From assembly GCA_013140575.1 (NCBI GenBank), contig JABFSN010000047.1, positions 5,036 to 69,035 on the forward strand: a DNA stretch of 64,000 bases. Reading direction: 5' to 3'. This document shows positions 2,823 through 59,445 of the stretch, piece after piece. A program made the position numbers and the translations under genes. The notes beneath the pieces are model-generated. The model was given only the letters and a program-made list of their open reading frames with translations, was not told where the DNA came from and searched no databases. The stretch's first letter is position 1; every line of letters begins with the position of its first letter. The stretch is from Phycisphaerales bacterium (GTDB lineage Bacteria > Planctomycetota > Phycisphaerae > UBA1845).

Positions 2823-3655
2823 CCGCGACGAAGGCAACGAACCAGACCGGACTCGATGGGCGATGGCGCCTCAACCGGACCGTCGGTTTCACCCTTGTCG
2901 AACTGCTCGTCGTGCTGGCGATCGTCGCGCTTCTGCTGTCCATTCTTCTGCCCAGTTTCGCGGCGGCGCGAGGACAGGCGAAATCGGCTGCTTGCTCGTC
3001 GAACGTGCGGCAATTGGTCCTGGCCAACACGATGTACGGAAACGAGCACGCGGACCGATTCTGCCCGGGCGCGGCGCAGTTTATCGGCAACGCGAAGCAT
3101 CCGGGCAATTTGCATCGCTGGCACGGCACGCGCGACAAGCCCGGTGAACCGTTCGACGCACGGCGCGGTCCGCTCGTGCGTTATCTCGGGCGTGACGCTC
3201 GAATCCGGGCCTGTCCGGCGTTCACCAACGTCGCCCGCGGGTTTGAATACGGGGCGGGCGGTTTCGGCTACAACAATGCGTTCATCGGTGTGGCGCTGAA
3301 GCGCACCATGCCGAACGGGTATGCAATGGAGTCGGACGTCGTGGGGGCCTTGTCGAGCCGGGTGCGAACTCCCGCCGACACGCTGATGTTCGCCGATAGC
3401 GCGTTCGTCACCAATCGATTGATCGAATACAGTTTCGCCGAGCCGCGTTATCATGCGACGATGGGCTTCCGGGCCGACCCTTCGACCCATTTCAGGCACG
3501 GCGGACACGCCAATGTCGGCTGGTGCGACGGGCACGTGGACCAAAGGTCGCTGACGTTCACTTGGTCAAGCGGGTTGTATCCCGACCACCCGGGCCGGCA
3601 CGCCATCGGTTGGTTCGGCGCCACGGACGACAACAGGCTTTTCGATCTGGACTGA
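2819..3655 (+). CDS. prepilin-type N-terminal cleavage/methylation domain protein (DUF1559-like pseudopilin)
   Basis: Class III signal G/FTLVELLVVLAIVALLLSILLP near the N-terminus. C-terminal HFRHGGHANVGWCDGHV motif is typical of the planctomycete DUF1559 family. Confidence 0.85.
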   Translation: MTATKATNQTGLDGRWRLNRTVGFTLVELLVVLAIVALLLSILLPSFAAARGQAKSAACSSNVRQLVLANTMYGNEHADRFCPGAAQFIGNAKHPGNLHRWHGTRDKPGEPFDARRGPLVRYLGRDARIRACPAFTNVARGFEYGAGGFGYNNAFIGVALKRTMPNGYAMESDVVGALSSRVRTPADTLMFADSAFVTNRLIEYSFAEPRYHATMGFRADPSTHFRHGGHANVGWCDGHVDQRSLTFTWSSGLYPDHPGRHAIGWFGATDDNRLFDLD

Positions 3656-3656
3656 C

Positions 3657-3905
3657 TCGACAACGCTATGACAATCCCAAGCACGATCGACGAAATCTGC
3701 ACCGTGCGACACACGGCCCTTCCCAGCCCCGGAATCTGCACCGTGCAACACCAGGCCCTTCCCAGCCCCGAAGGGGCGGCAGTCAGTAGCCGGGGGTGGA
3801 GTCCGCGACAGCGGCCCACACCCCCGGAATCGCCCCCGACGCAAAGACCAGCCCCAGCGGGGCGAAAGAAGGGATGGCGGGATTCGTGTTCACGGCGCTA
3901 TAGTA
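3657..3905 (+). mobile_element. MITE-like element, family 1, copy A (249 bp, carries an internal 39-bp tandem duplication)
   Basis: Degenerate TIRs related to TACTACAACGC (left TCGACAACGC, right end ...GCGCTATAGTA). Flanked by CTGAC at 3652-3656 and 3906-3910. Same core as copies at 50470-50680 (same orientation) and 8199-8412 (inverted). Core is a string of hairpins; frames are not conserved between copies. Confidence 0.6.
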
Positions 3906-3918
3906 CTGACTCGACCAC

Positions 3919-5394
3919 ATGAACCGGTCCATACCCACCCCGACGCTCTGCGGATGCTGTTCCGAGCCGCATCCGGTCCGTATCGTGTTTGCGGTTGCCG
4001 TTGCATTGCTGGCCTGGACCTCCACGCCCGGGTGCGGAGTCGACGAATCCATCCTGCTCCCCGCGCAATTCAGCGAGACACCGCCGCCCGACGAGTCGTC
4101 CGTGCTGGCCCGCTTCGCCGTCATCAGCGACACCCAATGTCTGGACGAAGAGTCGCCCGCGAGATTCGCGGGCGCCGTCGCCTACATTCCATCGGCGTGG
4201 CGACCGCACGAGGCCTATACCACCCAGTTGTTCGACGGCGCCGTCCGCGCCGTCAACCGCATTCACCATTCCGGGCGCACCATCGATTTCGCATTGCACA
4301 CCGGCGATCTGTGTGACAACGCACAAATGAACGAACTGCAATGGGCGCTCACCGTCATGGACGGCGGCCAAATCGATCCGCGAAGCGGTCCCGACGACCG
4401 ATCACCGGACCAATTACCGCCGCCCGAACTTGATCCGCACGCCCCGTTCGCGGCCCAGGGGCTGTACCGTCACGGCATTCACGGACCGCGGCCATCGATT
4501 CCCTGGTACGTCGTATTCGGCAATCACGATGCGTTCGCGTTGGGGACGTTTCCCATCGTTGAGTCCATCACCGGCGCCCGCCGCGCCCCGTTGCCGCTGG
4601 AAGGTCGCCCCGGCATCCTACTGCCCGTCATTCTGAATCCGGTGGGATTCCTCGCCCACGGCAACGTGACGCCGGCCATGCCCGGTCCCCCGACGTTCCT
4701 CGAAGTGCCACGTGTTGTCACGCAGAATCCGGGACGCCGGTTTTTCAACAAGGGTGAATTCATCGCCGCCATGTACCGGACGCAAACGGATCCGCCGGGT
4801 CACGGTTTAACCGACGACCCCTCGGCACCGACGTGGTACAGCGTCGCCCCGATGCCCGGTCTGCGCCTGATCGGGTTGGACACGTCGGACGTGCCCGTGC
4901 CGGTGCCCGGGTTTCCCTATTCCGAGGGCGCCGTTTCGATTGCTCAATCGCGGTTTCTGCTTCGGGAACTGCAACGGGCGTCCGATCGCGGCGAACTCGT
5001 CATCGTCGCGTCCCACCACCCCAGTCACTGTCTCCAATCGATCTACGGCTCCGTATTGAGTGAACCGTCTTTGCAATCATTGCTGAATGAGTTTCCCAAC
5101 GTCATCGTTCATTTGGCCGGCCACACCCATCGCCATCGCGTCACCGACCGCGGCGGCTACCTGGAGATCGAAACGGCGAGCCTTCTGGATTGGCCGCAGG
5201 AGGGTCGGCTGATCGAAATCTACCGCGACCCGACAAGTGCTGCCGTTCACATCGCCTATGAGACAATCAACCATCTCGATGACTCGCTGCCTCCGCTGGG
5301 CGAAGATCCGCTGCTGGAGCTTCGCGCCGAAGCCCATCGCCGCGCCGATCCGATTAATCTACTCCCAGCCCATCCATCTCCCGATCTGCGATAA
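3919..5394 (+). CDS. calcineurin-like metallophosphoesterase, lipoprotein-type signal
   Basis: Motifs VISDTQC, HTGDLCDN, VFGNHDAF, ASHHP and LAGHTHRH match the metallophosphoesterase signature. N-terminal LLAWTSTPGC resembles a lipobox. Confidence 0.8.
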   Translation: MNRSIPTPTLCGCCSEPHPVRIVFAVAVALLAWTSTPGCGVDESILLPAQFSETPPPDESSVLARFAVISDTQCLDEESPARFAGAVAYIPSAWRPHEAYTTQLFDGAVRAVNRIHHSGRTIDFALHTGDLCDNAQMNELQWALTVMDGGQIDPRSGPDDRSPDQLPPPELDPHAPFAAQGLYRHGIHGPRPSIPWYVVFGNHDAFALGTFPIVESITGARRAPLPLEGRPGILLPVILNPVGFLAHGNVTPAMPGPPTFLEVPRVVTQNPGRRFFNKGEFIAAMYRTQTDPPGHGLTDDPSAPTWYSVAPMPGLRLIGLDTSDVPVPVPGFPYSEGAVSIAQSRFLLRELQRASDRGELVIVASHHPSHCLQSIYGSVLSEPSLQSLLNEFPNVIVHLAGHTHRHRVTDRGGYLEIETASLLDWPQEGRLIEIYRDPTSAAVHIAYETINHLDDSLPPLGEDPLLELRAEAHRRADPINLLPAHPSPDLR

Positions 5395-5660: not shown

Positions 5661-8159
5661 CTACCGGTCATTCGTGTCGGCGGGTCGCAGCGCGGCGTCG
5701 GCGTCGATGCGGGCCGCTTCGCGGAGGGGGTCGGTGGTGTTTTCGCGGTTGGCGAGTTGCGTGGCGATGCGGAAGGATTCCTGCGCTTCGGACGTTTGGC
5801 CGAGGCGGGCCTGGGCGGCCGCGGCGATGAACAGGCAGGCGGGCATGTCGGCGCCGCCCTGGCGGGATTTCATGGAGGTGTCGATGGCCTCGTTGAATTT
5901 GCCGTTGCGAAGCATGGCCAGGGCGAGCACGGCGAACAGCCCGGGGTCGTCGGGGCGGGTACGCACGGCGTTTTGAATCAAGGTGTAGGCTTCGACGTCG
6001 TTGCGTAACGTCGCGTCGGTCGAGGTCATGTACTCCATGGCCAGCGTCGCGCTCAAATAGGGGTCGTCGAGGGCCATGGAGACGCCGTGGCGGAAGACGC
6101 GGACGGCTTCGTGGAGTTGCCCCTTCTGCCGCAGCAGGAGACCGAGATTGCGGTACAGCGTTCCGACGCGGGGGTCGTTGGCCAGCGCGGTTCGGAACTG
6201 GGCGATGGCGTCGTCGATGCGTCCCTGGCGGGCGAGCACGTTGCCGAGTTCGGTGTGGGCCTCCACGTAGTTGTCGCGGCGGGCGATGGCGCTGCGGAGC
6301 AGTTCGATGCCCCGATCGGCTTTCCCGTCGCCGGCCAATGCCCGACCGAGATGATAGCGGATTTCCGGCGATTCGGGATCGCGTTCGAAGGCGCGCTCAA
6401 GATAGGGCAGGGCGCTTTCGAAGCGGCGGGCTTCGCTGTGGGTGATGCCCATTTGCAGCAGCGCGAAAACGTTATCCATGTCCTTCTGAATGATGGTGGC
6501 CAGGGTCGCGGCGGCGTTGTCCAGCCGGCCGATGCGCCAAAGCGCGGAGGCGAGCAGCAGGTTCGGCGTCGGGTCGGTGCAATCGACGGCCTTGATGGCC
6601 TGATAGAAATCGATGGTTGCGGACAGTTGATCGTCGAGGACGGGGGCCATGGCGCGATAGATGTTGGCCGATGGTCCGACCGGTCCACGTTCGGGGAAAT
6701 AGAGCGACGAGGGCGCCGGACTGTCGCTGTGCGCTTCTTTCGTGATCACCAGCCAGGCGGGGTCGGGCGGACCGCGCTGGATCAGGTGGTCGGTCATGGT
6801 TGCGTGGACAACATCCCGCGGGCGGCGTGACGGCATGTGGCACGAGACGCAATCGGCGGAGGCGTCGTGCGCGGAGGTTGTTGCTCCATTCGCGGCGGGC
6901 GTCGAATCGGCCTTGCAATCGTCGGCCTGGTGGCAGGTCAGGCACTTGGCGCGGTAGTGGGCGGCACGTCGCTCGGGCGGCGGCTTGCGGTGCGGATCGT
7001 GGCAGGTCAGGCAATTCATTCGGCCGTCGCTTTCGACGTAGCAGCGGCTTTGCCGCAGACGGTAGGGGTGGTGGTTGATTTCGAAACGAGCGGATTTGTC
7101 GGGGCCGTCGTCGTAATCGAGCACGAGGAGATAGTCTTCCAACGGTTGGCCGGGGCGGTAGGAGAAGTCGTTCCGGCCGAAGCGGCGGACGAGGCTGGTA
7201 TGGAGGACGGTCGGCTGCAAATGGCATTGGTAGCAGACATCGTCGCGGCGTTGCGCGTCCAGTTTGGACGGATTGACAATGGCGCCGCGAACCTGTCCGA
7301 GCGTTGAATCGGTTTGACCGGCCAGTCGGACGTGGTCCTGCCCAGGTCCGTGGCAGCGCTGGCAGCCGATGCCCTGGGGGAGTTCCCTTGGATAGACGGG
7401 GAGCTTTCCGAAGGCGTCGGCGCCGTGCGGCACGTCGGGGTAGGCGTTATGGCAGAACATGCAGTCGCGGGAGATGGGGCGCATGAAATCCTGCTGGTCG
7501 CGGCGTTCGTAACCCGGGGCCATCGCCCACTTGCCGTCCTGGGTGTACCAGCAGACGGGTAGTTGGAAGATCTCGCCGGATTCGGTCTGGTACAGGTACG
7601 TGCGGACGTGGTTGCCGGAGCCGACGATCCAGTCCACCTTGCGTTCGATTTCGTTGAGCCGCCGACCGTCGGCGTCGATCTGCCAGCGTTTGAAGAACAT
7701 CCCGCCGTCGCGCAGGGACATTTCGTAGTGACGGTTGGATTCGGCGTGAACGACGCGGGCGTCCCGCCAATTCTCGATGATGTTGTCGGGCGACGGGCGA
7801 TAAAACGAACGAGCCATGCCGACGTGGGCGTACGCGTCGTACAGTTCGCGATGGCACTCGGCGCAGGCCGTGTCGGAGATGTAGCCGGGAATGGCGGACG
7901 TTGGTTTTGACGATGGCGGCGTTGAAGCCGCGGACGTGGTCGCCGGCCCGGCGGATTGGTTAACGACCGCAGGATTCCCGATCACCGATGGCGATTTGCT
8001 TGCATTCGCGCGGTCGCCCGTTGTCGTTGGTCCGTTCGGCGAAGTAGATTCGGGTTGCCTGCGGCAGGCGGTGGTGGTCGAAATCAGGACAATGATCGTC
8101 GGCACCCAGAACCGTTGTTGCCCGAATCCCTGACACTGTAATGCCACGCGTGTACCCAT
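5661..8159 (-). CDS. multiheme c-type cytochrome domain fused to C-terminal TPR repeats
   Basis: Seven CxxCH motifs in the N-terminal half (CAECH, CMFCH, CQRCH, CYQCH, CLTCH twice, CVSCH). The C-terminal half is TPR-like repeats (for example YHLGRALAGDGKADRGIELLRSAIARRDNYVEAHTELGNVLARQGRIDDAIAQF). Signal/lipobox-like N-terminus. Confidence 0.8.
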   Translation of the reverse strand: MGTRVALQCQGFGQQRFWVPTIIVLISTTTACRRQPESTSPNGPTTTGDRANASKSPSVIGNPAVVNQSAGPATTSAASTPPSSKPTSAIPGYISDTACAECHRELYDAYAHVGMARSFYRPSPDNIIENWRDARVVHAESNRHYEMSLRDGGMFFKRWQIDADGRRLNEIERKVDWIVGSGNHVRTYLYQTESGEIFQLPVCWYTQDGKWAMAPGYERRDQQDFMRPISRDCMFCHNAYPDVPHGADAFGKLPVYPRELPQGIGCQRCHGPGQDHVRLAGQTDSTLGQVRGAIVNPSKLDAQRRDDVCYQCHLQPTVLHTSLVRRFGRNDFSYRPGQPLEDYLLVLDYDDGPDKSARFEINHHPYRLRQSRCYVESDGRMNCLTCHDPHRKPPPERRAAHYRAKCLTCHQADDCKADSTPAANGATTSAHDASADCVSCHMPSRRPRDVVHATMTDHLIQRGPPDPAWLVITKEAHSDSPAPSSLYFPERGPVGPSANIYRAMAPVLDDQLSATIDFYQAIKAVDCTDPTPNLLLASALWRIGRLDNAAATLATIIQKDMDNVFALLQMGITHSEARRFESALPYLERAFERDPESPEIRYHLGRALAGDGKADRGIELLRSAIARRDNYVEAHTELGNVLARQGRIDDAIAQFRTALANDPRVGTLYRNLGLLLRQKGQLHEAVRVFRHGVSMALDDPYLSATLAMEYMTSTDATLRNDVEAYTLIQNAVRTRPDDPGLFAVLALAMLRNGKFNEAIDTSMKSRQGGADMPACLFIAAAAQARLGQTSEAQESFRIATQLANRENTTDPLREAARIDADAALRPADTNDR

Positions 8160-8198: not shown

Positions 8199-8412
8199 TA
8201 CTACAACGCTATGAGCGCGTCTCCGGTCATGGCTTCTTTCGCCCCGCTGGGGCTGGTCTTGACCGTGCCAACGGCATCCGGGGGTTACGTCCGCTGTCGC
8301 GGACTAGACCCCCGGCTATTGACCGTAGCCCCTCCGGGGCAAGGAGGGACGCCGGCACCACGAACGGGGCCTCTTGATCGATCGCGCCCGGCATCGTCGT
8401 AGTGTTGTAGTA
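8199..8412 (-). mobile_element. MITE-like element, family 1, copy B (inverted relative to A and C)
   Basis: Best-preserved TIRs: left TACTACAACGCTATGA, reverse complement of right end TACTACAACACTACGA. Flanked by CTAA(T) on both sides (8195-8199 and 8413-8417). Core is the reverse complement of the copy A/C core. Confidence 0.65.
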
Positions 8413-10695: not shown

Positions 10696-11709
10696 ATGAA
10701 AAAAATAGCGATCATTCCGTTGGTAATGGGGGTGGCGATCGGCGGTCTGGCCATCAAGCTGGGTCTGTCGACCATTCAGAAGGCCAAGGCCAGCGCGTCC
10801 GTTCAATCGGCGAACGTGGTGGTGGCGGTGGAGGAGATTTCGGCGACGTCGACCATCGAGGCGCGTCTGGTGAAGGTGATTTCGACGCCGGTGACGCCGT
10901 TGATGGGCAAGGACAGTTACACGAAGGCGGAAGACATCATCGGGCGCGTCGCGGCCACGACCATTCCGCGCGGCGCCGTGGTGCGCGGCGAGCTACTGGC
11001 GCCGGAGGGCACGCCCGCGGGGCTGACGGTCCGCATCCCGTCCGGCTATCGGGCGGTGTCGGTCAAGATCGACGAGGTAACCGGCGTCGCCTATCAACTT
11101 CAGCCCAACAGTTGGGTGGACGTGATCGTGGTCATGGACGTCCAGAACGGGCGGCAAAAGGAAACCATCAGCCGCATCCTGTTGCAGGAGGTCGAGGTCA
11201 TCGCCGTGGGGCGCACGCTGACCACGGGCGACGACCCCGAGGGCAAGGGCAAGGTGGCCAAGTCCATCACGCTGCTGGTGAAGGATTCGGACGTGCCCAG
11301 CCTGCACCTGGCCCAGACCCGCGGCAAGCTGACGCTGGCGATGCGCAGTCCGGAAGACCACCTGATGTCCAAAGCCGGTCAGGCGACGGAAAGCGAGTTG
11401 CTGGGTCGATCGAAGCCCGTCGCGGACGAAGACGAACCCGAGGACGCGGCGCCGGTGGCACAGGTGGCGCCGAGGCCGCAGCCGGAGTCGTACATGGTGT
11501 CGGTCATGGGTTCGGACGGGCAGCAGTCGATGGTCACATTCAATGGCAAGAACTCGACGGTGCGGCAGTCGGTGGTGACGAGAGGCGGAGTGGCCGCGTC
11601 GTCGGCGCCGGGGCATCGCGGGTTGTTGGGCGCGACCGCGACGTCCGATTCGGACGAGGATAGCGGCGTTTCGTCGGTTCCCGGCTTCCCGCCGGCGCCG
11701 CCGGGATGA
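10696..11709 (+). CDS. cpaB: Flp pilus assembly protein CpaB/RcpC
   Basis: N-terminal membrane anchor (MKKIAIIPLVMGVAIGGLAI). SAF-like region followed by a CpaB-type beta-rich domain. Synteny with flp, cpaA and tadE. Acidic, low-complexity C-terminal tail. Confidence 0.8.
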   Translation: MKKIAIIPLVMGVAIGGLAIKLGLSTIQKAKASASVQSANVVVAVEEISATSTIEARLVKVISTPVTPLMGKDSYTKAEDIIGRVAATTIPRGAVVRGELLAPEGTPAGLTVRIPSGYRAVSVKIDEVTGVAYQLQPNSWVDVIVVMDVQNGRQKETISRILLQEVEVIAVGRTLTTGDDPEGKGKVAKSITLLVKDSDVPSLHLAQTRGKLTLAMRSPEDHLMSKAGQATESELLGRSKPVADEDEPEDAAPVAQVAPRPQPESYMVSVMGSDGQQSMVTFNGKNSTVRQSVVTRGGVAASSAPGHRGLLGATATSDSDEDSGVSSVPGFPPAPPG

Positions 11710-11905: not shown

Positions 11906-12076
11906 GCTAAATAAGAACACACAAGAGGGAAACCGAGTTTCGTCCGCCCTCCGGGCGGAAAGAAATGGGGAACCCGATCCAGGGGCTGAAGCCCCTGGCT
12001 AAGACCGTGCGCCCTACGGGCGAGGCTTCGCGCGTCATGACGAAATCGGATTCCCTATTCCCTGGTTCAATTTAGC
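11906..12076 (+). mobile_element. MITE-like element, family 2, copy 1 (171 bp)
   Basis: TIRs GCTAAATAAGAAC / reverse complement of right end GCTAAATTGAAC. About 85% identical by eye to the inverted copy at 52741-52911. Core has three hairpins (TCCGCCC-TCC-GGGCGGA, CCAGGGGC-TGAA-GCCCCTGG, CGCCC-TAC-GGGCG). No clear target duplication. Confidence 0.6.
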
Positions 12077-12093
12077 GTTCGTCTTGGTTGCGG

Positions 12094-12236
12094 GGTACGT
12101 GTTCAGCGTGGGAAACTTCGAATCAGTGCCACGGGCGCAAGCCCGCGGGCGCCAATGCGCGGGGTGCCGCGTGAACCTCCAATCACCGGGCTTGCGCCCG
12201 GTGCTCTGAATTGCGGGGCATACGCTCAACAGGTAC
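12094..12236 (+). mobile_element. MITE-like element, family 3, copy 1 (143 bp) with 7-bp target-site duplication
   Basis: Left end GGTACGTGTTCAGCGT; right end ACGCTCAACAGGTAC (13/15 inverted match). Flanked by identical GTTGCGG at 12087-12093 and 12237-12243. Core shared with 51553-51694. Confidence 0.7.
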
Positions 12237-12301
12237 GTTGCGGACGGTATGTCCGCGATGATGAAATGGTTGGGCCCACTTTCGTCTGCGGAGACTCTGC
12301 G

Positions 12302-13333
12302 ATGAAACAGAGAACAGTGTGCGGAACGGTGGTGTTTCTGACGACGCTGGCACTCGTCACGGCGCAAGTCGCGGCAAAGGACGCCAAGCCGGCGAAAACC
12401 GATCCGACTGAGAGGGGACGAGCGTACACCGCCCTGTTTTACGACGGCAAGGTCGATCAGGTGTGGGAGCATTTCGGCGAGGCCATGAAGACCGCGCTGG
12501 TTTCCAAGGAACAGTTGCAGACCTTCCGCGATCAGGTGAACGAGCAGATCGGCGAGGAGGCCGCGGTGGTGAACGAGGAGGTCATTCGGGCCGGTTCGTT
12601 TCACGTCTATTCCCGTCATGCCCGGTTCAAGAAGTTCGCCGAGGTGATTGAGGTCAACTGGACGTTCGACGACAAGGGCGTGGTCGAGGGTTTTTACATC
12701 CGGCCGCAACAGAAACCGGCCGAGACGCAGTATCTCGACCATAAGACGAAAACCGACCTGCGCCTGCCGTTCGACGGCGCGTGGTTTGTGTTCTGGGGCG
12801 GGCGGACCATCGCCGAGAATTACCATGTCGTGGCGAAGGACCAGCGGTTCGCCTACGACCTTGTGATCATGAAGGACGGATCGAGTCACTCCGGCGACGG
12901 CACGTCCAACGAGCAATACCACGCGTTCGGAAAACCGATCGTGGCGCCGGGCGCCGGCGTCGTGGCGGCCGCGGTGGATGGTTTGCCGGACAATCCGCCG
13001 GGCGAAATGGACGCGAAGAACGCGGCGGGCAACAACGTGGTGATCGATCATGGCGACGGCGAGTTTTCGTTCCTGGCCCACCTTCAGAAGGGCAGCGTGA
13101 AGGTGAAAAAGGGCCAAACCGTGCAGGCCGGCGACGCGCTGGGCCTGTGCGGCAACAGCGGCAACACCAGCGAGCCGCACCTGCACTATCACCTGCAAAC
13201 GACGGCCGTTTCCCACTACGGCGAAGGCCTGCCGGCCCAGTTTCAAAACTACATCGCTGACGGCCAGCCGATCTCCCGCGGCGAACCGACCAAGGGACAG
13301 ACCATCGAGCACGGGGCCGCCACATCCGAATAA
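12302..13333 (+). CDS. M23 family metallopeptidase (secreted)
   Basis: HxxxD and HxH signature region DHGDGEFSFLAHL...GNSGNTSEPHLHYHLQ. Signal peptide MKQRTVCGTVVFLTTLALVTAQVAA starts at the Met at 12302. The upstream part of the track ORF (from 12155) runs through the family-3 element and is rejected. Confidence 0.85.
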   Translation: MKQRTVCGTVVFLTTLALVTAQVAAKDAKPAKTDPTERGRAYTALFYDGKVDQVWEHFGEAMKTALVSKEQLQTFRDQVNEQIGEEAAVVNEEVIRAGSFHVYSRHARFKKFAEVIEVNWTFDDKGVVEGFYIRPQQKPAETQYLDHKTKTDLRLPFDGAWFVFWGGRTIAENYHVVAKDQRFAYDLVIMKDGSSHSGDGTSNEQYHAFGKPIVAPGAGVVAAAVDGLPDNPPGEMDAKNAAGNNVVIDHGDGEFSFLAHLQKGSVKVKKGQTVQAGDALGLCGNSGNTSEPHLHYHLQTTAVSHYGEGLPAQFQNYIADGQPISRGEPTKGQTIEHGAATSE

Positions 13334-24792: not shown

Positions 24793-25599
24793 ATGTGCCG
24801 CATCGGCCGTCAGAATTACGACCTCGGTGGGTGGCACGGACAACGGTACTCCGTTGTCCGTGTTGGCGATGCGGTAACGTCGGAATCGTCGCAATCCGCG
24901 AACAAACGAATACACGGGCAAGCGGGTACGCTTGCCCGTGCCACCCGGCGAAATCGCGTTTGCCTATGGCTGATCGCGGCCACAGGAACGGCGGGTGGTT
25001 GCGGTTATTCCGGCGGCAAGGCCTGGTTCATGTCGGGGCTGTTCAAGCGGCCCACGATCGAGGCCGGTTTCGAATTCGGCGAAGGGCCGGTGGCCGTGTT
25101 GGTCGACGATTTCCAGGAACAATGCTATTGGCCCGGCGCGACGCACCTGTTGGCCGAGAAGGTCGTTCAGGCGTTGCTGGACCAAAACGTCGCCAAGATT
25201 GTGATCCCGGCGTCGCACATGCACCAGTTGCGACAGGGCGATCCGGATTTCGACGAGAAATCGGCCGCCGCCGTCGGGCGGCTGGTGAATGCCGATCAAT
25301 TGTTGTTGTTGGAGATTCGCTCGTTCGACGCCACGGAAACGCCCACCGAGGCGAGCGCGGCCGCCCGGATGAGTGTGGCCGCCAAGGTCATCAACGTGCT
25401 TGAAAACAACGACCGCGCCAAGGTGCGGTTGTGGCCGAGATCGCACGAGGGCGAAGTCATCGAGGCCGACATCACGGCCGCCGCGATCACGCGGGCGAAA
25501 TCACGCGAAGCCATTCTCGATGAACTGACCAAGGCGCTGGCGGAGCGTGTCGTCAGGCGGTTCTACGACCGCCCGATGGAAGACTTCGAAAAGGGATGA
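24793..25599 (+). CDS. lipoprotein-like protein, unknown function (paralog 2); start codon unresolved
   Basis: Mature part aligns with paralog 1 (VAVLV..., C-terminal helix). Lipoprotein-type signal RRNRVCLWLIAATGTAGGCG begins about codon 52 of the ORF. No ATG/GTG/TTG lies in frame between 24796 and that signal. A palindromic unit lies in this 5' stretch. Confidence 0.55.
   Translation: MCRIGRQNYDLGGWHGQRYSVVRVGDAVTSESSQSANKRIHGQAGTLARATRRNRVCLWLIAATGTAGGCGYSGGKAWFMSGLFKRPTIEAGFEFGEGPVAVLVDDFQEQCYWPGATHLLAEKVVQALLDQNVAKIVIPASHMHQLRQGDPDFDEKSAAAVGRLVNADQLLLLEIRSFDATETPTEASAAARMSVAAKVINVLENNDRAKVRLWPRSHEGEVIEADITAAAITRAKSREAILDELTKALAERVVRRFYDRPMEDFEKG
24908..24950 (+). repeat. 45-bp palindromic unit (CACGGGCAAGCG-GGTA-CGCTTGCCCGTG + CCACCCGGCG)
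   Basis: Perfect 12-bp arms at 24913-24924 and 24929-24940. Identical arms occur at 59408-59435 and, split, at 51538-51713. Confidence 0.85.
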
Positions 25600-50469: not shown

Positions 50470-50680
50470 TGCAACAACGCTATGACGATTCCAGGCACGA
50501 TCGACGAAATCGGCACCGTGCAACACAGGGCCCTTCCCAGCCCCGAAGGGGCGCCAGTCAGTAGCCGGGGGTGTCGTCCGCGACAGCGGACGACACCCCC
50601 GGAATCGTCCCCGACGCCATTACCAGCCCCAGCGGGGCGACAGAAGCCATGACCGGAGACCCCTTCATGGCGTTGTAGTA
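50470..50680 (+). mobile_element. MITE-like element, family 1, copy C (211 bp)
   Basis: Left end TGCAACAACGC; reverse complement of right end TACTACAACGC. Flanked by CTCC at 50466-50469 and 50681-50684. Perfect 15-bp-stem central hairpin at 50567-50600. Confidence 0.65.
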
Positions 50681-50759
50681 CTCCATCCGCTTTCAACCCC
50701 CCCCGTGTGCCGCATCCGCAATCCGACCCGCTATACTGCCCGTCACGCGGGAGCCATTC

Positions 50760-51479
50760 ATGACCGACGACCGATGGCTTCGATTACGCCGATGGACCGC
50801 CATCATCAAGCTCGCCCTCGCCCTCGGCGGGTCGCTGCTTTTTTCGTTATGGCTGTCGGTGTCGTGCATCCCCGCCTGGTACGACCCACCGACCGTCGCC
50901 GAAGCGGACCTGCCCCGTATTCGTGCGGCCGTTCCCAACGCCTACCAATCATTCACCGATCGCGTCGTGAATGGCGCCCCATTTACGTTCACCCTGCGCG
51001 CGGCCGAATTGAATGAATGGATCGCCGCCCGCGACGCGCTCTGGCCGGACGCCCGCGGAACCGTGCCCGGTTGGCTTCACGGCCCGGTCATCGCGTTTGA
51101 GCGCGATCGAATCATTCTCGCGGCCCGGGTGACCAGCGGCTCGACCAACGCCGTCGTCAGCGCCCGCTTCGCCATCACCGCGTCGGCCGACACCGTCGAA
51201 ATCCGCCTCGTTGGAATCGCCGTCGGCGCTCTGCCACTGCCTCGATCGCTTCTGCCCAACGATTTCGAACGCCAGGTGCGTGACTGGCTCGACCGCGCCA
51301 ACCTGCCCATGGACCGACCAACGACCGGCGACGGGGATCGCGCGGGTTTGCGTCCGCCATTGACGGACGGCATCCGTATACCCAACCGTTTCCACTGGTC
51401 CAACGGTCGGCGCGATTTCCGCCTCGTCGGCATCACTTCGCGCGATGGATCAGTGAACCTGACCGTCGAACCCCAATGA
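50760..51479 (+). CDS. membrane-anchored hypothetical protein
   Basis: 239-aa ORF with good codon bias and an N-terminal TM segment (IIKLALALGGSLLFSLWLSV). No recognisable motif. Confidence 0.55.
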   Translation: MTDDRWLRLRRWTAIIKLALALGGSLLFSLWLSVSCIPAWYDPPTVAEADLPRIRAAVPNAYQSFTDRVVNGAPFTFTLRAAELNEWIAARDALWPDARGTVPGWLHGPVIAFERDRIILAARVTSGSTNAVVSARFAITASADTVEIRLVGIAVGALPLPRSLLPNDFERQVRDWLDRANLPMDRPTTGDGDRAGLRPPLTDGIRIPNRFHWSNGRRDFRLVGITSRDGSVNLTVEPQ

Positions 51480-51525: not shown

Positions 51526-51720
51526 CTTTTCGGGTGGCACGGGCAAGCGTACGTATGTGATGAGCGACGAATACTGCGAATCAGAGCCGTGGGCGCAAGC
51601 CCACGGTTGCCTCAATCGCGCGGCAACTTGCCGATCGCTTCACCGGGCTCGCGCCCGGTGCTCTGAAAGCAGGAGGGGACGCTAATCACGTACCAGCGTA
51701 CTCGCTTGCCCGTGGTTTCA
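51526..51720 (-). repeat. 45-bp palindromic unit interrupted in its loop by a family-3 element
   Basis: Arms CACGGGCAAGCG (51538-51549) and CGCTTGCCCGTG (51702-51713), with the CCACCCGA tail read on the minus strand. Removing 51553-51694 and one AGCGTAC copy restores a 12-4-12 hairpin. Confidence 0.75.
51553..51694 (+). mobile_element. MITE-like element, family 3, copy 2 (142 bp) with 7-bp target-site duplication
   Basis: Flanked by AGCGTAC at 51546-51552 and 51695-51701. Ends GTATGTGATGAGCG / reverse complement GGTACGTGATTAGCG. Core hairpins CCGTGGGC-GCAA-GCCCACGG and CACCGGGC-TCGC-GCCCGGTG are shared with 12094-12236. Confidence 0.7.
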
Positions 51721-52009
51721 CCGTCCAGGCTTCTTGTCGGTCACACCCGCCGCGCACGCCACGCACGGACAACGGGGGAACGTGTGTGTGTTTAGCGACG
51801 ACTTGTGTCCCGCGCGCGTTTCCGCCCCGGCGGGGCGGCGGAATGTAGCCACGGGTGAAGCGATGCCCAGCGTCGCGCAACCCGTGGATTCCGTTGCGCG
51901 GGATTCCCCGCCCCGGCAGGGGCGGCGGATGTGACGCGGGAATCGCTAGACACGTATCCACGAATTGTCGCCCCTTGCCGCCGGCGGGGCGCGGCGCAAT
52001 GATAGCGCC

Positions 52010-52564
52010 GTGCTGGACTACGGCGTCATCCAAACCGACTGGGGTCCGTTCGCGTGGGTCGCGTCCGATCGCGGCCTGGTGGCCACCCTGCTGCCCGATC
52101 AATACCCGCGCCCGATCGACCGGATCATCGCCGATCGCTGGCCCGACGCGCGGCCGAGCCGCCGCGCACCGGGGAATCTATCCCGCGCCGTTGTCGACTA
52201 TTACAAACGCCGATTGGTCCGATTTGACATGCCGCTCGATTTGGACGGGTGGACCGAATTCCGCCGGGCCGTGCTGAATGCGTGCCGCCGCATCCCCCAC
52301 GGCCGCACGGCCAGCTACGCCGATCTGGCCCGCGCCGCCGGCCGGCCCGCCGCGGTCCGCGCCGTCGGGTCAACGATGGCCCAAAACCCCATCCCCTTGA
52401 TTATCCCCTGCCATCGCGTAATTCGCACGGACGGAACGTTGGGCGGGTTTTCCTCGCCCGACGGCGTCCGCACCAAACGCCGCATGTTGGAATGGGAGGG
52501 CGTCGGCGATCTGCCGCTGCTGACCGAGCGAATGCAACACCGCCACGCCGCGATGACCGCGTGA
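52010..52564 (+). CDS. ogt: methylated-DNA--protein-cysteine methyltransferase
   Basis: Active site IIPCHRV within RTASYADLARAAGRPAAVRAVGSTMAQNPIPLIIPCHRVI. GTG at 52010 (VLDYGVIQT...) is preferred over the TTG at 51965. Confidence 0.88.
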   Translation: MLDYGVIQTDWGPFAWVASDRGLVATLLPDQYPRPIDRIIADRWPDARPSRRAPGNLSRAVVDYYKRRLVRFDMPLDLDGWTEFRRAVLNACRRIPHGRTASYADLARAAGRPAAVRAVGSTMAQNPIPLIIPCHRVIRTDGTLGGFSSPDGVRTKRRMLEWEGVGDLPLLTERMQHRHAAMTA

Positions 52565-52601: not shown

Positions 52602-52686
52602 CAGCTCCGAAGGGGCGACAGTCAATAGCCGGGGGCGTCAGCCCCCGGACCCGTCATCCCCCGCGAAAAAGCCCCGGAGGGGCGGC
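52602..52686 (+). repeat. truncated/degenerate family-1 core fragment
   Basis: CAGCTCCGAAGGGGCGACAGTCAATAGCCGGGGGCGTCAGCCCCCGG... parallels the family-1 core (CAGCCCCGAAGGGGCGCCAGTCAGTAGCCGGGGGTG...). No TIRs. Confidence 0.45.
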
Positions 52687-52740: not shown

Positions 52741-52911
52741 ACTAAATAAAACCGCGGAATAGGGAAACCGACTCCTTCATGGCGCACGAATCCTCGCCCG
52801 TAGGGCGCACGGTCTTAGCCAGGGGCTTCAGCCCCTGGATCGGATCCCCCATTTCTTTCCGCCCGGAGGGCGGACGAACCCCGGGTTCCCTTCTGTGTGT
52901 TCTTATTTAGC
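52741..52911 (-). mobile_element. MITE-like element, family 2, copy 2 (171 bp, inverted)
   Basis: Reverse complement aligns end to end with 11906-12076, including the TIRs. The TIR at 52899-52911 contains the stop codon of the HDOD gene. Confidence 0.6.
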
Positions 52912-57733: not shown

Positions 57734-58669
57734 ATGACGCCGCTCGTCGAAACAAACGTGGTACGACAATCGCAGCGGCGCATTCCCCCGCCGCCGGTCA
57801 AGCGGTTTCTCGACTATCTGTTCGTGGAATGCGGTCTGGCGGGCAATACCATTGTCGCGTACCAGGCGGACCTGTGCGAATTCTGGGACGACGTGGCCGC
57901 GGACGGCGAGCTCCGCGCCGATCTGGATATTGAAGACGTTCAGACGCATCTGATCGGATTACACCAGCGCGGATTGTCCACGTCGTCGATCGCGCGACAT
58001 CTGGCGTCGATCAAGATGTTGCTGCGTTTTCTGCATCAGCACGGTCTGGTGCGGCGGGACGTGGCGTCGCTGATCGAACTGCCCAAAAAATGGCACCGTC
58101 TGCCGCACGCGGTGCATTACGACCAGGTGGAGGCGCTGTTGCAGTCGCCGGACGCGTCGGACGAATTCCATCTCCGCGACCGGGCCGTGCTCGAATTGTT
58201 GTACGCGACCGGCATGCGGGTCAGCGAATTGACGGGCATCACGCTGGAAAGCGTCAATCTGGACGTCGGCTATCTGCGCTGCATGGGCAAGGGGCGGCGG
58301 GAGCGGATCGTGCCGATCGGGCGGACGGCGATCAAGGCCGTTCGCGCCTTCGTTGACGTGCTGCGGCCGGCGCTGGAGACGGCGCGATCGGGCCGGCGGA
58401 TGTTTCTGTCGCGGACGGGCCGTCCGATGGACCGCACCAGCATCTGGCGCCTGGTGCGCAAGTACGCGATTCGTGCGGGCATCGGGCAGCCGTTGCACCC
58501 GCACACGTTGCGGCATTGTTTCGCGACCCATCTGCTGGCGGGGGGCGCCGACCTGCGCGTGGTTCAGGAATTGCTGGGCCATGCCGATCTGGCCACGACG
58601 CAGATTTATCTGCACGTCGACGAGCACCGATTAAGCGAAGTGCATCGCCGATTTCATCCGCGGCCGTGA
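57734..58669 (+). CDS. xerD: site-specific tyrosine recombinase XerD
   Basis: N-terminal SAM-like domain FLDYLFVECGLAGNTIVAYQADL. Catalytic ...MRVSEL..., HTLRHCFATHLL and LGHADLATTQIYLHV. Confidence 0.9.
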   Translation: MTPLVETNVVRQSQRRIPPPPVKRFLDYLFVECGLAGNTIVAYQADLCEFWDDVAADGELRADLDIEDVQTHLIGLHQRGLSTSSIARHLASIKMLLRFLHQHGLVRRDVASLIELPKKWHRLPHAVHYDQVEALLQSPDASDEFHLRDRAVLELLYATGMRVSELTGITLESVNLDVGYLRCMGKGRRERIVPIGRTAIKAVRAFVDVLRPALETARSGRRMFLSRTGRPMDRTSIWRLVRKYAIRAGIGQPLHPHTLRHCFATHLLAGGADLRVVQELLGHADLATTQIYLHVDEHRLSEVHRRFHPRP

Positions 58670-59361: not shown

Positions 59362-59402
59362 CGCCCGTTTCCGATCGAAACGCGACGTGGAGTGCTCGAC
59401 CG

Positions 59403-59445
59403 GAATCCACGGGCAAGCGAGTACGCTTGCCCGTGCCACCCGACG
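59403..59445 (+). repeat. 45-bp palindromic unit (CACGGGCAAGCG-AGTA-CGCTTGCCCGTG + CCACCCGACG)
   Basis: Perfect 12-bp arms at 59408-59419 and 59424-59435. Intergenic, upstream of the ABC transporter genes. Confidence 0.85.

Follow-up and report, generated by a model that had tools for sequence, protein, structure and literature searches.

Structure and surroundings of the two repeats

The window, by which we mean the whole 64,000-nucleotide stretch that was analysed, belongs to a Phycisphaerales MAG contig and has a G+C content of 63.8%. It contains two copies of a short repeat. Copy 1 is preceded by an RcpC/CpaB gene (10696-11709) and ends 66 nt before the ATG of an M23 peptidase gene (12302-13333; NCBI protein NOS99731.1). 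The neighbours of copy 2 are an ORF without assignment (50760-51479) on one side and a methylguanine-DNA methyltransferase-like gene (51965-52564) on the other. The genes that neighbour the two copies are unrelated to each other, as are the immediate flanks. The copies and their ends are as follows.

12087-12093, no strand: left target-site duplication of copy 1, GTTGCGG, an exact 7-nt direct repeat of 12237-12243
12094-12236, plus strand: copy 1 of the putative MITE, 143 bp (nhmmer E = 8.8e-21 against the family profile; fold z = -4.6)
12095-12108, plus strand: left terminal inverted repeat (TIR) of copy 1, GTACGTGTTCAGCG, preceded by an extra G at 12094; 12/14 complementary to 12223-12236
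12223-12236, minus strand: right TIR of copy 1, CGCTCAACAGGTAC, which pairs with the left end in the fold
12237-12243, no strand: right target-site duplication of copy 1, GTTGCGG, repeating 12087-12093 exactly
51546-51552, no strand: left target-site duplication of copy 2, AGCGTAC
51553-51694, plus strand: copy 2 of the putative MITE, 142 bp (nhmmer E = 1.6e-21 against the family profile; fold z = -6.0)
51553-51566: left TIR of copy 2
51680-51693: right TIR of copy 2, followed by a C at 51694
51695-51701, no strand: right target-site duplication of copy 2, AGCGTAC

Copy 1 begins with GGTACGTGTTCAGCGT and ends with ACGCTCAACAGGTAC. When read by eye, the TIRs match at 12/14 positions in copy 1 (GTACGTGTTCAGCG versus the reverse complement GTACCTGTTGAGCG) and also at 12/14 in copy 2 (GTATGTGATGAGCG versus GTACGTGATTAGCG), and the terminal helices that they form are paired in the predicted folds of both elements. 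An extra G (C on the other strand) is found at one end of each copy. Since each copy carries this single extra terminal base, the most parsimonious length for the duplication is 7 bp, a length that rests on two copies. We estimate the chance of a perfect 7-mer repeat abutting both ends at about 6e-5 per copy.

Overall the copies are 77% identical, and the identity is unevenly distributed: it is 61-67% in the arms and 51% in the spacer, compared with 86% and 93% in two conserved blocks termed H1 and H2. The window has exactly two occurrences of each shared block, and none of 100 shuffled sequences contained two matches to either of them. A search of the window with the family profile (nhmmer) gave no third copy, and the additional 5 kb of the source contig contains no further copy. 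The only ORFs within the element are a 41-residue ORF with a TTG start and a spurious 5' extension of the downstream gene.

The first-pass annotation of this DNA had proposed two MITE-like copies at 12094-12236 and 51553-51694, each with TIRs of about 15 bp and a perfect 7-bp target-site duplication, GTTGCGG at the first copy and a different one at the second. It had also described a shared core with two 8-bp-stem hairpins and a GCAA loop, and had found neither coding capacity in the element nor a transposase in the window. The sequence agrees with this description throughout: the second bracket is AGCGTAC on both sides, both duplications are exact, and H1 of copy 1 pairs at seven of its eight stem positions.

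The conserved core

The core of the element is an inverted doublet of a single 28-nt module, which consists of TCAGAGC, an 8-bp stem closed by a GCNA loop, and GAC. The four modules in the window are given below.

12123-12150, plus strand: H1 module of copy 1, TCAGTGC-CACGGGC GCAA GCCCGCG-GGC
12182-12209, minus strand: H2 module of copy 1, the same 28-nt module inverted (reverse complement TCAGAGCACCGGGCGCAAGCCCGGTGAT); stem 8/8
51581-51608: H1 module of copy 2; stem 8/8
51639-51666: H2 module of copy 2; stem 8/8

The H1 hairpin has a GCAA loop, and the one imperfection among the four stems is an A-C mismatch in H1 of copy 1. Across 70 distinct modules, 93% of the cells are paired, and four of the eight stem pairs have undergone change in both partners, as in CGCA/TGCG, CGTG/CACG, ACCG/CGGT and ACAG/CTGT. 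The covariation within the module is 0.373 compared with 0.126 in shuffles (reached in 0/500), and pairings slid out of register score no higher than 0.105. Compensatory changes have preserved the stem of the module. Its G-T mismatches are about as common as its A-C mismatches, so the constraint has the appearance of one on a DNA palindrome, or on a structure that can form from either strand, rather than on a single RNA strand. Either strand of the whole element can be folded into a rod or a three-way junction, with z values of -4.3 to -6.0 relative to shuffles. The core most likely acts as DNA and not as a directional RNA, serving either as a sub-terminal site, for binding or for structure, or as a REP-like unit that has been captured.

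In 514 kb of related loci, 59 of 87 module clusters are convergent doublets. The doublet is the most conserved part of the element and is better kept than the TIRs; most loci were found by way of the core, which biases this comparison, but the comparison within the window and the copies found by their termini are free of that bias. The two hairpins are separated by anything from 0 to about 200 nt. Doublets also occur without arms. When metagenomes were scanned with the window-type H1 block, five loci came back, all of them armless doublets, with no further copy of the window subfamily among them. One such arrangement is GAATCAGAGC-[H1]-16 to 200 nt-[H2]-GCTCTGATTC, with no family termini and no visible duplication. 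Among the genome loci there are 13 doublets without recognisable termini, whereas most doublets in the MAGs CBDUXT and OFTM250 do have them. Since armless doublets and arrays of modules both occur, the core is more widespread than any one set of arms, with the reservation that most of these loci were found by way of the core. The arrays have the look of BIME-like REP clusters: locus L034 has four H2 units in tandem with a 35-nt period (~250-380), L062 has three H2 units in tandem (~5010-5150) and L061 has two H1 units (3057-3164).

Target sites and the insertion of copy 2

Copy 2 splits a palindromic repeat of which intact copies are present at 24913-24940 and 59408-59435. The parts concerned are listed here.

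51538-51552, no strand: left half of the split palindrome, CACGGGCAAGCGTAC, which joins 51702-51714 to give CACGGGCAAGCGTACTCGCTTGCCCGTG
51702-51714, no strand: right half of the split palindrome, TCGCTTGCCCGTG; 10/10 complementary across the insertion
59408-59435, no strand: intact paralogue of the target palindrome, used as a proxy for the empty site of copy 2 (flanked span 59398-59441 compared)
24913-24940, no strand: second intact paralogue of the target palindrome

Removal of 51553-51701, that is the element and one AGCGTAC, rebuilds CGGGTGGCACGGGCAAGCGTAC joined to TCGCTTGCCCGTGG.TTC (also written as CGGGTGGCACGGGCAAGCGTAC joined to TCGCTTGCCCGTGGTTTC). This reconstructed empty site is identical at 37 of 38 positions to the reverse complement of 59398-59441, so that the insertion brought in 142 bp and a duplication of exactly 7 bp; this empty site settles the length for copy 2 only. 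For the M23 peptidase that flanks copy 1, the nearest homologue is only 63% identical and did not provide an orthologous empty site.

The point of insertion of copy 2 is the loop of a hairpin with a 12-bp stem. In the reconstructed site of copy 1 the insertion falls at the 5' shoulder of a small hairpin, GCGGAC-GGTAT-GTCCGC. A hairpin is thus present at both target sites in the window; over 13 sites the preference for hairpin targets is not significant (mean z = -0.78 versus -0.06, p = 0.13).

We note that the target palindrome forms a family of its own, GGTGGCACGGGCAAGCG-NGTA-CGCTTGCCCGTGCCACC with a 12-bp stem, which is found at 24819-24863 in addition to the two sites listed above and at ~6250-6330 of locus L069. 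Similar palindromes (GGGCAAGCG/GGGCAAAC) adjoin an armless core in a metagenome contig.

Relatives in other genomes

Genome contigs were searched with a 23-mer of H2, GGGCTNGCGCCCGGTGCTCTGAA, which matches 66 stretches; almost all are from MAGs of Phycisphaerae or Planctomycetota and none is from the genome of the window itself. The family profile has 101 matches across these related loci. The relatives are 139-182 bp in length, the common form being 139-140 bp with variants of 153 and 182 bp. The common form starts with GGGTCCGTGAC and ends with GTCACGCACCC, and the canonical termini of the family are GGGTSCGTGAC...GTCACSCACCC. The window subfamily matches the first nine bases of the family terminus (GGGTACGTG versus GGGTCCGTG); beyond these bases and arms that can be aligned only loosely, it shares mainly the core with the rest of the family. 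The window subfamily is available as two copies only, which are 23% diverged.

The canonical relatives are bracketed by target duplications of 9 bp, in contrast to the 7 bp of the window copies. Perfect 9-bp duplications are seen at L004, L014, L029, L033 and L066, as well as at two copies that were found only by means of their termini (L022:4915 and L038:6297), and six further copies have duplications that are identical at 8/9 positions. Under strict criteria, 10 of 15 copies have duplications that are at least 8/9 identical, compared with 0/60 shifted 9-mer controls at 7/9 or better. In the MAG OFTM250 (JAJDDY01) the copies are nearly identical from TIR to TIR, lie at different sites, each with a perfect 9-bp duplication of its own, and end contigs, and seven pairs of contig ends share the element together with a perfect 9-mer across it. 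We read the near-identity of these copies and their place at contig ends as the mark of a recent burst.

Almost all of the ~62 copies surveyed over all loci are intergenic, with flanking genes in tandem (29), convergent (7) or divergent (6) arrangement. Relatives of the window copies are scattered through other Phycisphaerae genomes, as an ordinary kind of mobile DNA. In the Logan assembly of SRR11487824, contig L067 begins at window position 12181, the start of H2, and a break at this point suggests that there are more copies in the window's own genome or in its community.

Two observations concern individual relatives. A canonical copy with an additional spacer insertion is located at the end of a 3.8-kb contig, L040 (JAZGDW010000108.1), that is labelled Candidatus Krumholzibacteriia; its presence in a non-Planctomycete MAG could be the result of mis-binning or of horizontal transfer. 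Loci L050 (1624-1878) and L005 (~7450-7626) have in common a sequence of about 150 nt (GGGCCACCCACCGAGCA...CCGCAGATTC.AGGTTG) inside or beside the element. This stretch resembles a T-arm in part, but no tRNA was identified in it by ARAGORN, and it may be a nested insertion of another small repeat.

Search for a mobilizing enzyme

Pfam scans of the ~58 ORFs of the window revealed no transposase. The only recombinase in the window is of the XerC/D tyrosine type (57734-58669, plus strand; Phage_integrase and SAM-like N-terminal domains), and nothing visible connects it to the repeats. The related loci, ~0.5 Mb in all, yielded no autonomous element with matching termini: 12-mers resembling the TIRs at other points of the 66 loci proved to be further copies of the element, and an all-against-all blastn comparison of these loci gave no repeated segment of IS size. 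The ORFs that separate neighbouring copies, like those of the small contigs, are unremarkable genes, and no gene of the RAYT-like (Y1 HUH) kind was found in the window or between neighbouring copies. Viral contigs gave 0 matches to the H2 probe and 0 to the TIR probe, and plasmids gave no blastn match.

Nature of the element

In our view, the data are best explained if the two repeats are copies of a MITE, a non-coding, non-autonomous transposon moved in trans, and we place the probability of this at roughly 0.8. Each copy is a non-coding unit bounded by TIRs and bracketed by a duplication of fixed length, and the family has inserted independently at multiple sites. The small size, the dispersal of the copies and the interrupted palindrome at copy 2 are all as expected of a MITE. 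The first-pass annotation had called the element MITE-like, and each defining feature that could be tested, including insertion at copy 2, bears this out; the additional copies to which it had looked for conserved termini and duplications have both in the Phycisphaerae relatives, with duplications of 9 bp. Its caution in assigning no IS family was well placed, as an autonomous partner was not found in the loci searched.

If the element is a MITE, a transposase encoded elsewhere in the genome would recognise the imperfect TIRs, (G)GTAYSTGWTNAGCG, and would make a 7-nt staggered cut at the insertion site, the repair of which would leave the 7-bp duplication; in the canonical group the stagger would be 9 nt. 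The enzyme would probably be a DDE-type transposase acting in trans, and the autonomous partner of the element would be expected to carry inverted pairs of GTAYSTGWTNAGCG or GGGTSCGTGACA termini. With respect to the core, the TIR and H2 of the canonical group have the motif GTGACA in common, as those of the window group have GTGAT/GTGTT. The module may be a sub-terminal transposase-binding site that co-varies with the terminus. More broadly, the core could consist of sub-terminal binding sites, of a captured REP-like doublet or of a structure under host selection.

Two aspects of the family are unusual, namely the conserved REP-like core and the occurrence of both 7-bp and 9-bp duplications among related elements. 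The latter argues against a single enzyme, from which both lengths would not be expected. The former is not predicted by a simple deleted IS: conservation of the core exceeds that of the TIRs, and there are cores that have neither arms nor visible duplications. Also counting against a MITE are the negative searches for an autonomous partner and a window subfamily of just two diverged copies. Both aspects could be accommodated if the core were an independent REP/REPIN-like module, conserved across Phycisphaerae and not left over from IS ends, with selected hairpins, that had been picked up and spread by at least two TIR/transposase systems, one with a 7-nt and one with a 9-nt stagger, making the element a REPIN-MITE hybrid. 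We consider this version unlikely, although it is not far-fetched.

We also considered whether the element is at heart a REPIN- or BIME-like doublet, spread by a RAYT-like HUH transposase or by host selection, with the arms and flanking repeats incidental. The inverted doublet of a tagged palindrome, convergent in 59/87 clusters, is what such a model would have, and the compensatory changes in the stem, the near-equal frequency of G-T and A-C mismatches, which suggests a palindrome at the DNA level, the doublets in several MAGs and metagenome contigs that lack both arms and visible duplications, and the tandem arrays in L034 and L062 all speak for it. REPs and RAYTs have, moreover, been reported in Planctomycetes (PMC3733652). 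The duplications, however, of 7 bp in the window and 9 bp in the family, sit at the ends of the TIRs and not at the core, and in the near-identical OFTM250 copies conservation runs from one TIR to the other. Movement of REPs and REPINs by HUH enzymes leaves no target duplication. The tag of the module is TCAGAGC, not GTAG or CGTC, and no Y1 transposase was found in the window or in the intervals between neighbouring copies. Taken together, these points make the doublet model distinctly improbable as an account of the whole element.

The two conserved hairpins, one of which has a GNRA-type loop, might instead mark duplicated structured-RNA genes or cis-regulatory elements, such as an sRNA or a 5'-UTR element. 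TCAGAGC and GCTCTGA could form a closing helix, the folds are strong, the stems show compensatory changes, and 66 nt separate the end of copy 1 from the start codon of the M23 peptidase. Nevertheless, there is no Rfam match over the element at gathering score, and at E <= 10 no family emerges beyond weak, partial similarity to SorX and tfoR (14-17 bits, against gathering scores of 47 and 70). The element contains neither a sigma-70-like promoter nor a site resembling an intrinsic terminator. Its orientation with respect to tandem flanking genes is unbiased (17 co-oriented versus 12 anti-oriented), and the genes beside it are unrelated to each other. The mismatches show no G-U versus A-C strand asymmetry, the hairpin spacer, 0 to ~200 nt long, has an identity of only 51% when the window copies are compared, and the target duplications show insertion. 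On the absence of an Rfam family, promoter, terminator, orientation bias and mismatch asymmetry we rejected an RNA gene, which we regard as a very remote prospect.

Chance similarity or a local segmental duplication without mobility, to which the presence of only two 77% identical copies in 64 kb might point, carries virtually no weight and is refuted by the 66 related stretches in other genomes and by the empty site of copy 2, which interrupts an otherwise intact repeat, in addition to the unrelated flanks and the result of 0/100 shuffles with two matches to either core block.

Comparison with known systems

Bacterial MITEs include Correia/NEMIS of Neisseria, RUP of Streptococcus pneumoniae, ERIC/YPAL of enterobacteria and Nezha of cyanobacteria (listed in PMC3733652). 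The element resembles these in being a non-coding unit within the range of 70-300 bp with imperfect TIRs of ~15 bp and target-site duplications, in having many dispersed intergenic copies, in folding as one long hairpin over its whole length, and in its presumed movement in trans by an IS transposase. It differs in that no sequence relation to the listed MITEs was detected, the host here belongs to the Phycisphaerae, the core is a REP-like doublet that is better conserved than the TIRs, and related subfamilies differ in the length of the duplication (7 versus 9 bp). A full-text literature search found no description of a MITE family in Planctomycetes, and the family does not appear to have been described before.

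With REP, BIME and REPIN sequences the element shares a 28-nt tagged imperfect palindrome, which occurs mostly as inverted doublets and sometimes in arrays, a stem kept by compensatory change, and the existence of armless doublets without duplication. Its tag, however, is TCAGAGC instead of GTAG/CGTC, and no RAYT-like gene was found near any copy examined. REPINs are without outer TIRs and target duplications, whereas the window copies and most of their relatives carry both; because of these features the element does not belong to the REP/REPIN class, into which only the armless doublets fit.

Duplications of 7-9 bp are known from other IS families too (ISfinder tables), and this bears on the comparison with the prokaryotic Mutator-like IS. 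These elements (the IS256, ISH6, ISLre2, ISKra4 and ISMich2 groups) generate direct repeats of 8 or 9 bp and have a conserved terminal C (PMC3942029). The canonical relatives are like them in their 9-bp duplications and G...C termini; the window copies, in contrast, duplicate 7 bp, and no transposase with matching ends was found. The window copies thus fall outside the group, and for the canonical relatives we treat an origin from a Mutator-like IS (IS256/ISKra4) purely as a lead.

The element also bears a general likeness to the Acido-Lenti-1 RNA motif (Rfam RF01687), which is similarly two-hairpin, GC-rich and intergenic. The two are nonetheless different sequence families, and the element has no match to RF01687.

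Other repeats in the window

The only match in the window to reach an Rfam gathering score is to Acido-Lenti-1 (RF01687, 51.9 bits). It belongs to a dispersed hairpin repeat tagged with (G/T)TAGCC, of which there are at least seven copies in the 64 kb. Copies of the Acido-Lenti-1 type are located at 52603-52648 (minus strand), 11979-12022 (plus strand), 1552-1574 and 52816-52838, with related modules at 3763-3839, 50538-50614 and 8277-8348. A copy below the threshold, at 30.6 bits, precedes copy 1 of the MITE-like element by 72 nt. In this genome the motif looks like a REP of the GTAG type rather than a single-copy sRNA gene.

An Acido-Lenti-1-like module is contained in a 170-nt repeat that is present in two inverted copies, 89% identical, at 11906-12075 and 52742-52911. 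One of these ends 18 nt before copy 1 and the other lies ~1 kb downstream of copy 2. A further family of ~250 nt (3660-3907, 50474-50682 and 8199-8348) is 85-92% identical and has an inverted partial copy among its members; Logan contig L073 ends inside this repeat, at window position 3782.

Implications

The element adds a MITE family, at the confidence given above, to the Planctomycetota (class Phycisphaerae), in which mobile DNA has barely been charted. It accounts for the breaks that MAG and Logan assemblies of these organisms show at certain intergenic points, and the burst in OFTM250 would serve as a clean marker of recent transposition. From the position of copy 1, 66 nt away, effects on the expression of the downstream peptidoglycan hydrolase gene are possible. 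Finally, a REP-like core that is common to subfamilies with different ends and different duplication lengths offers a testable case of REP palindromes and TIR transposons exchanging parts.
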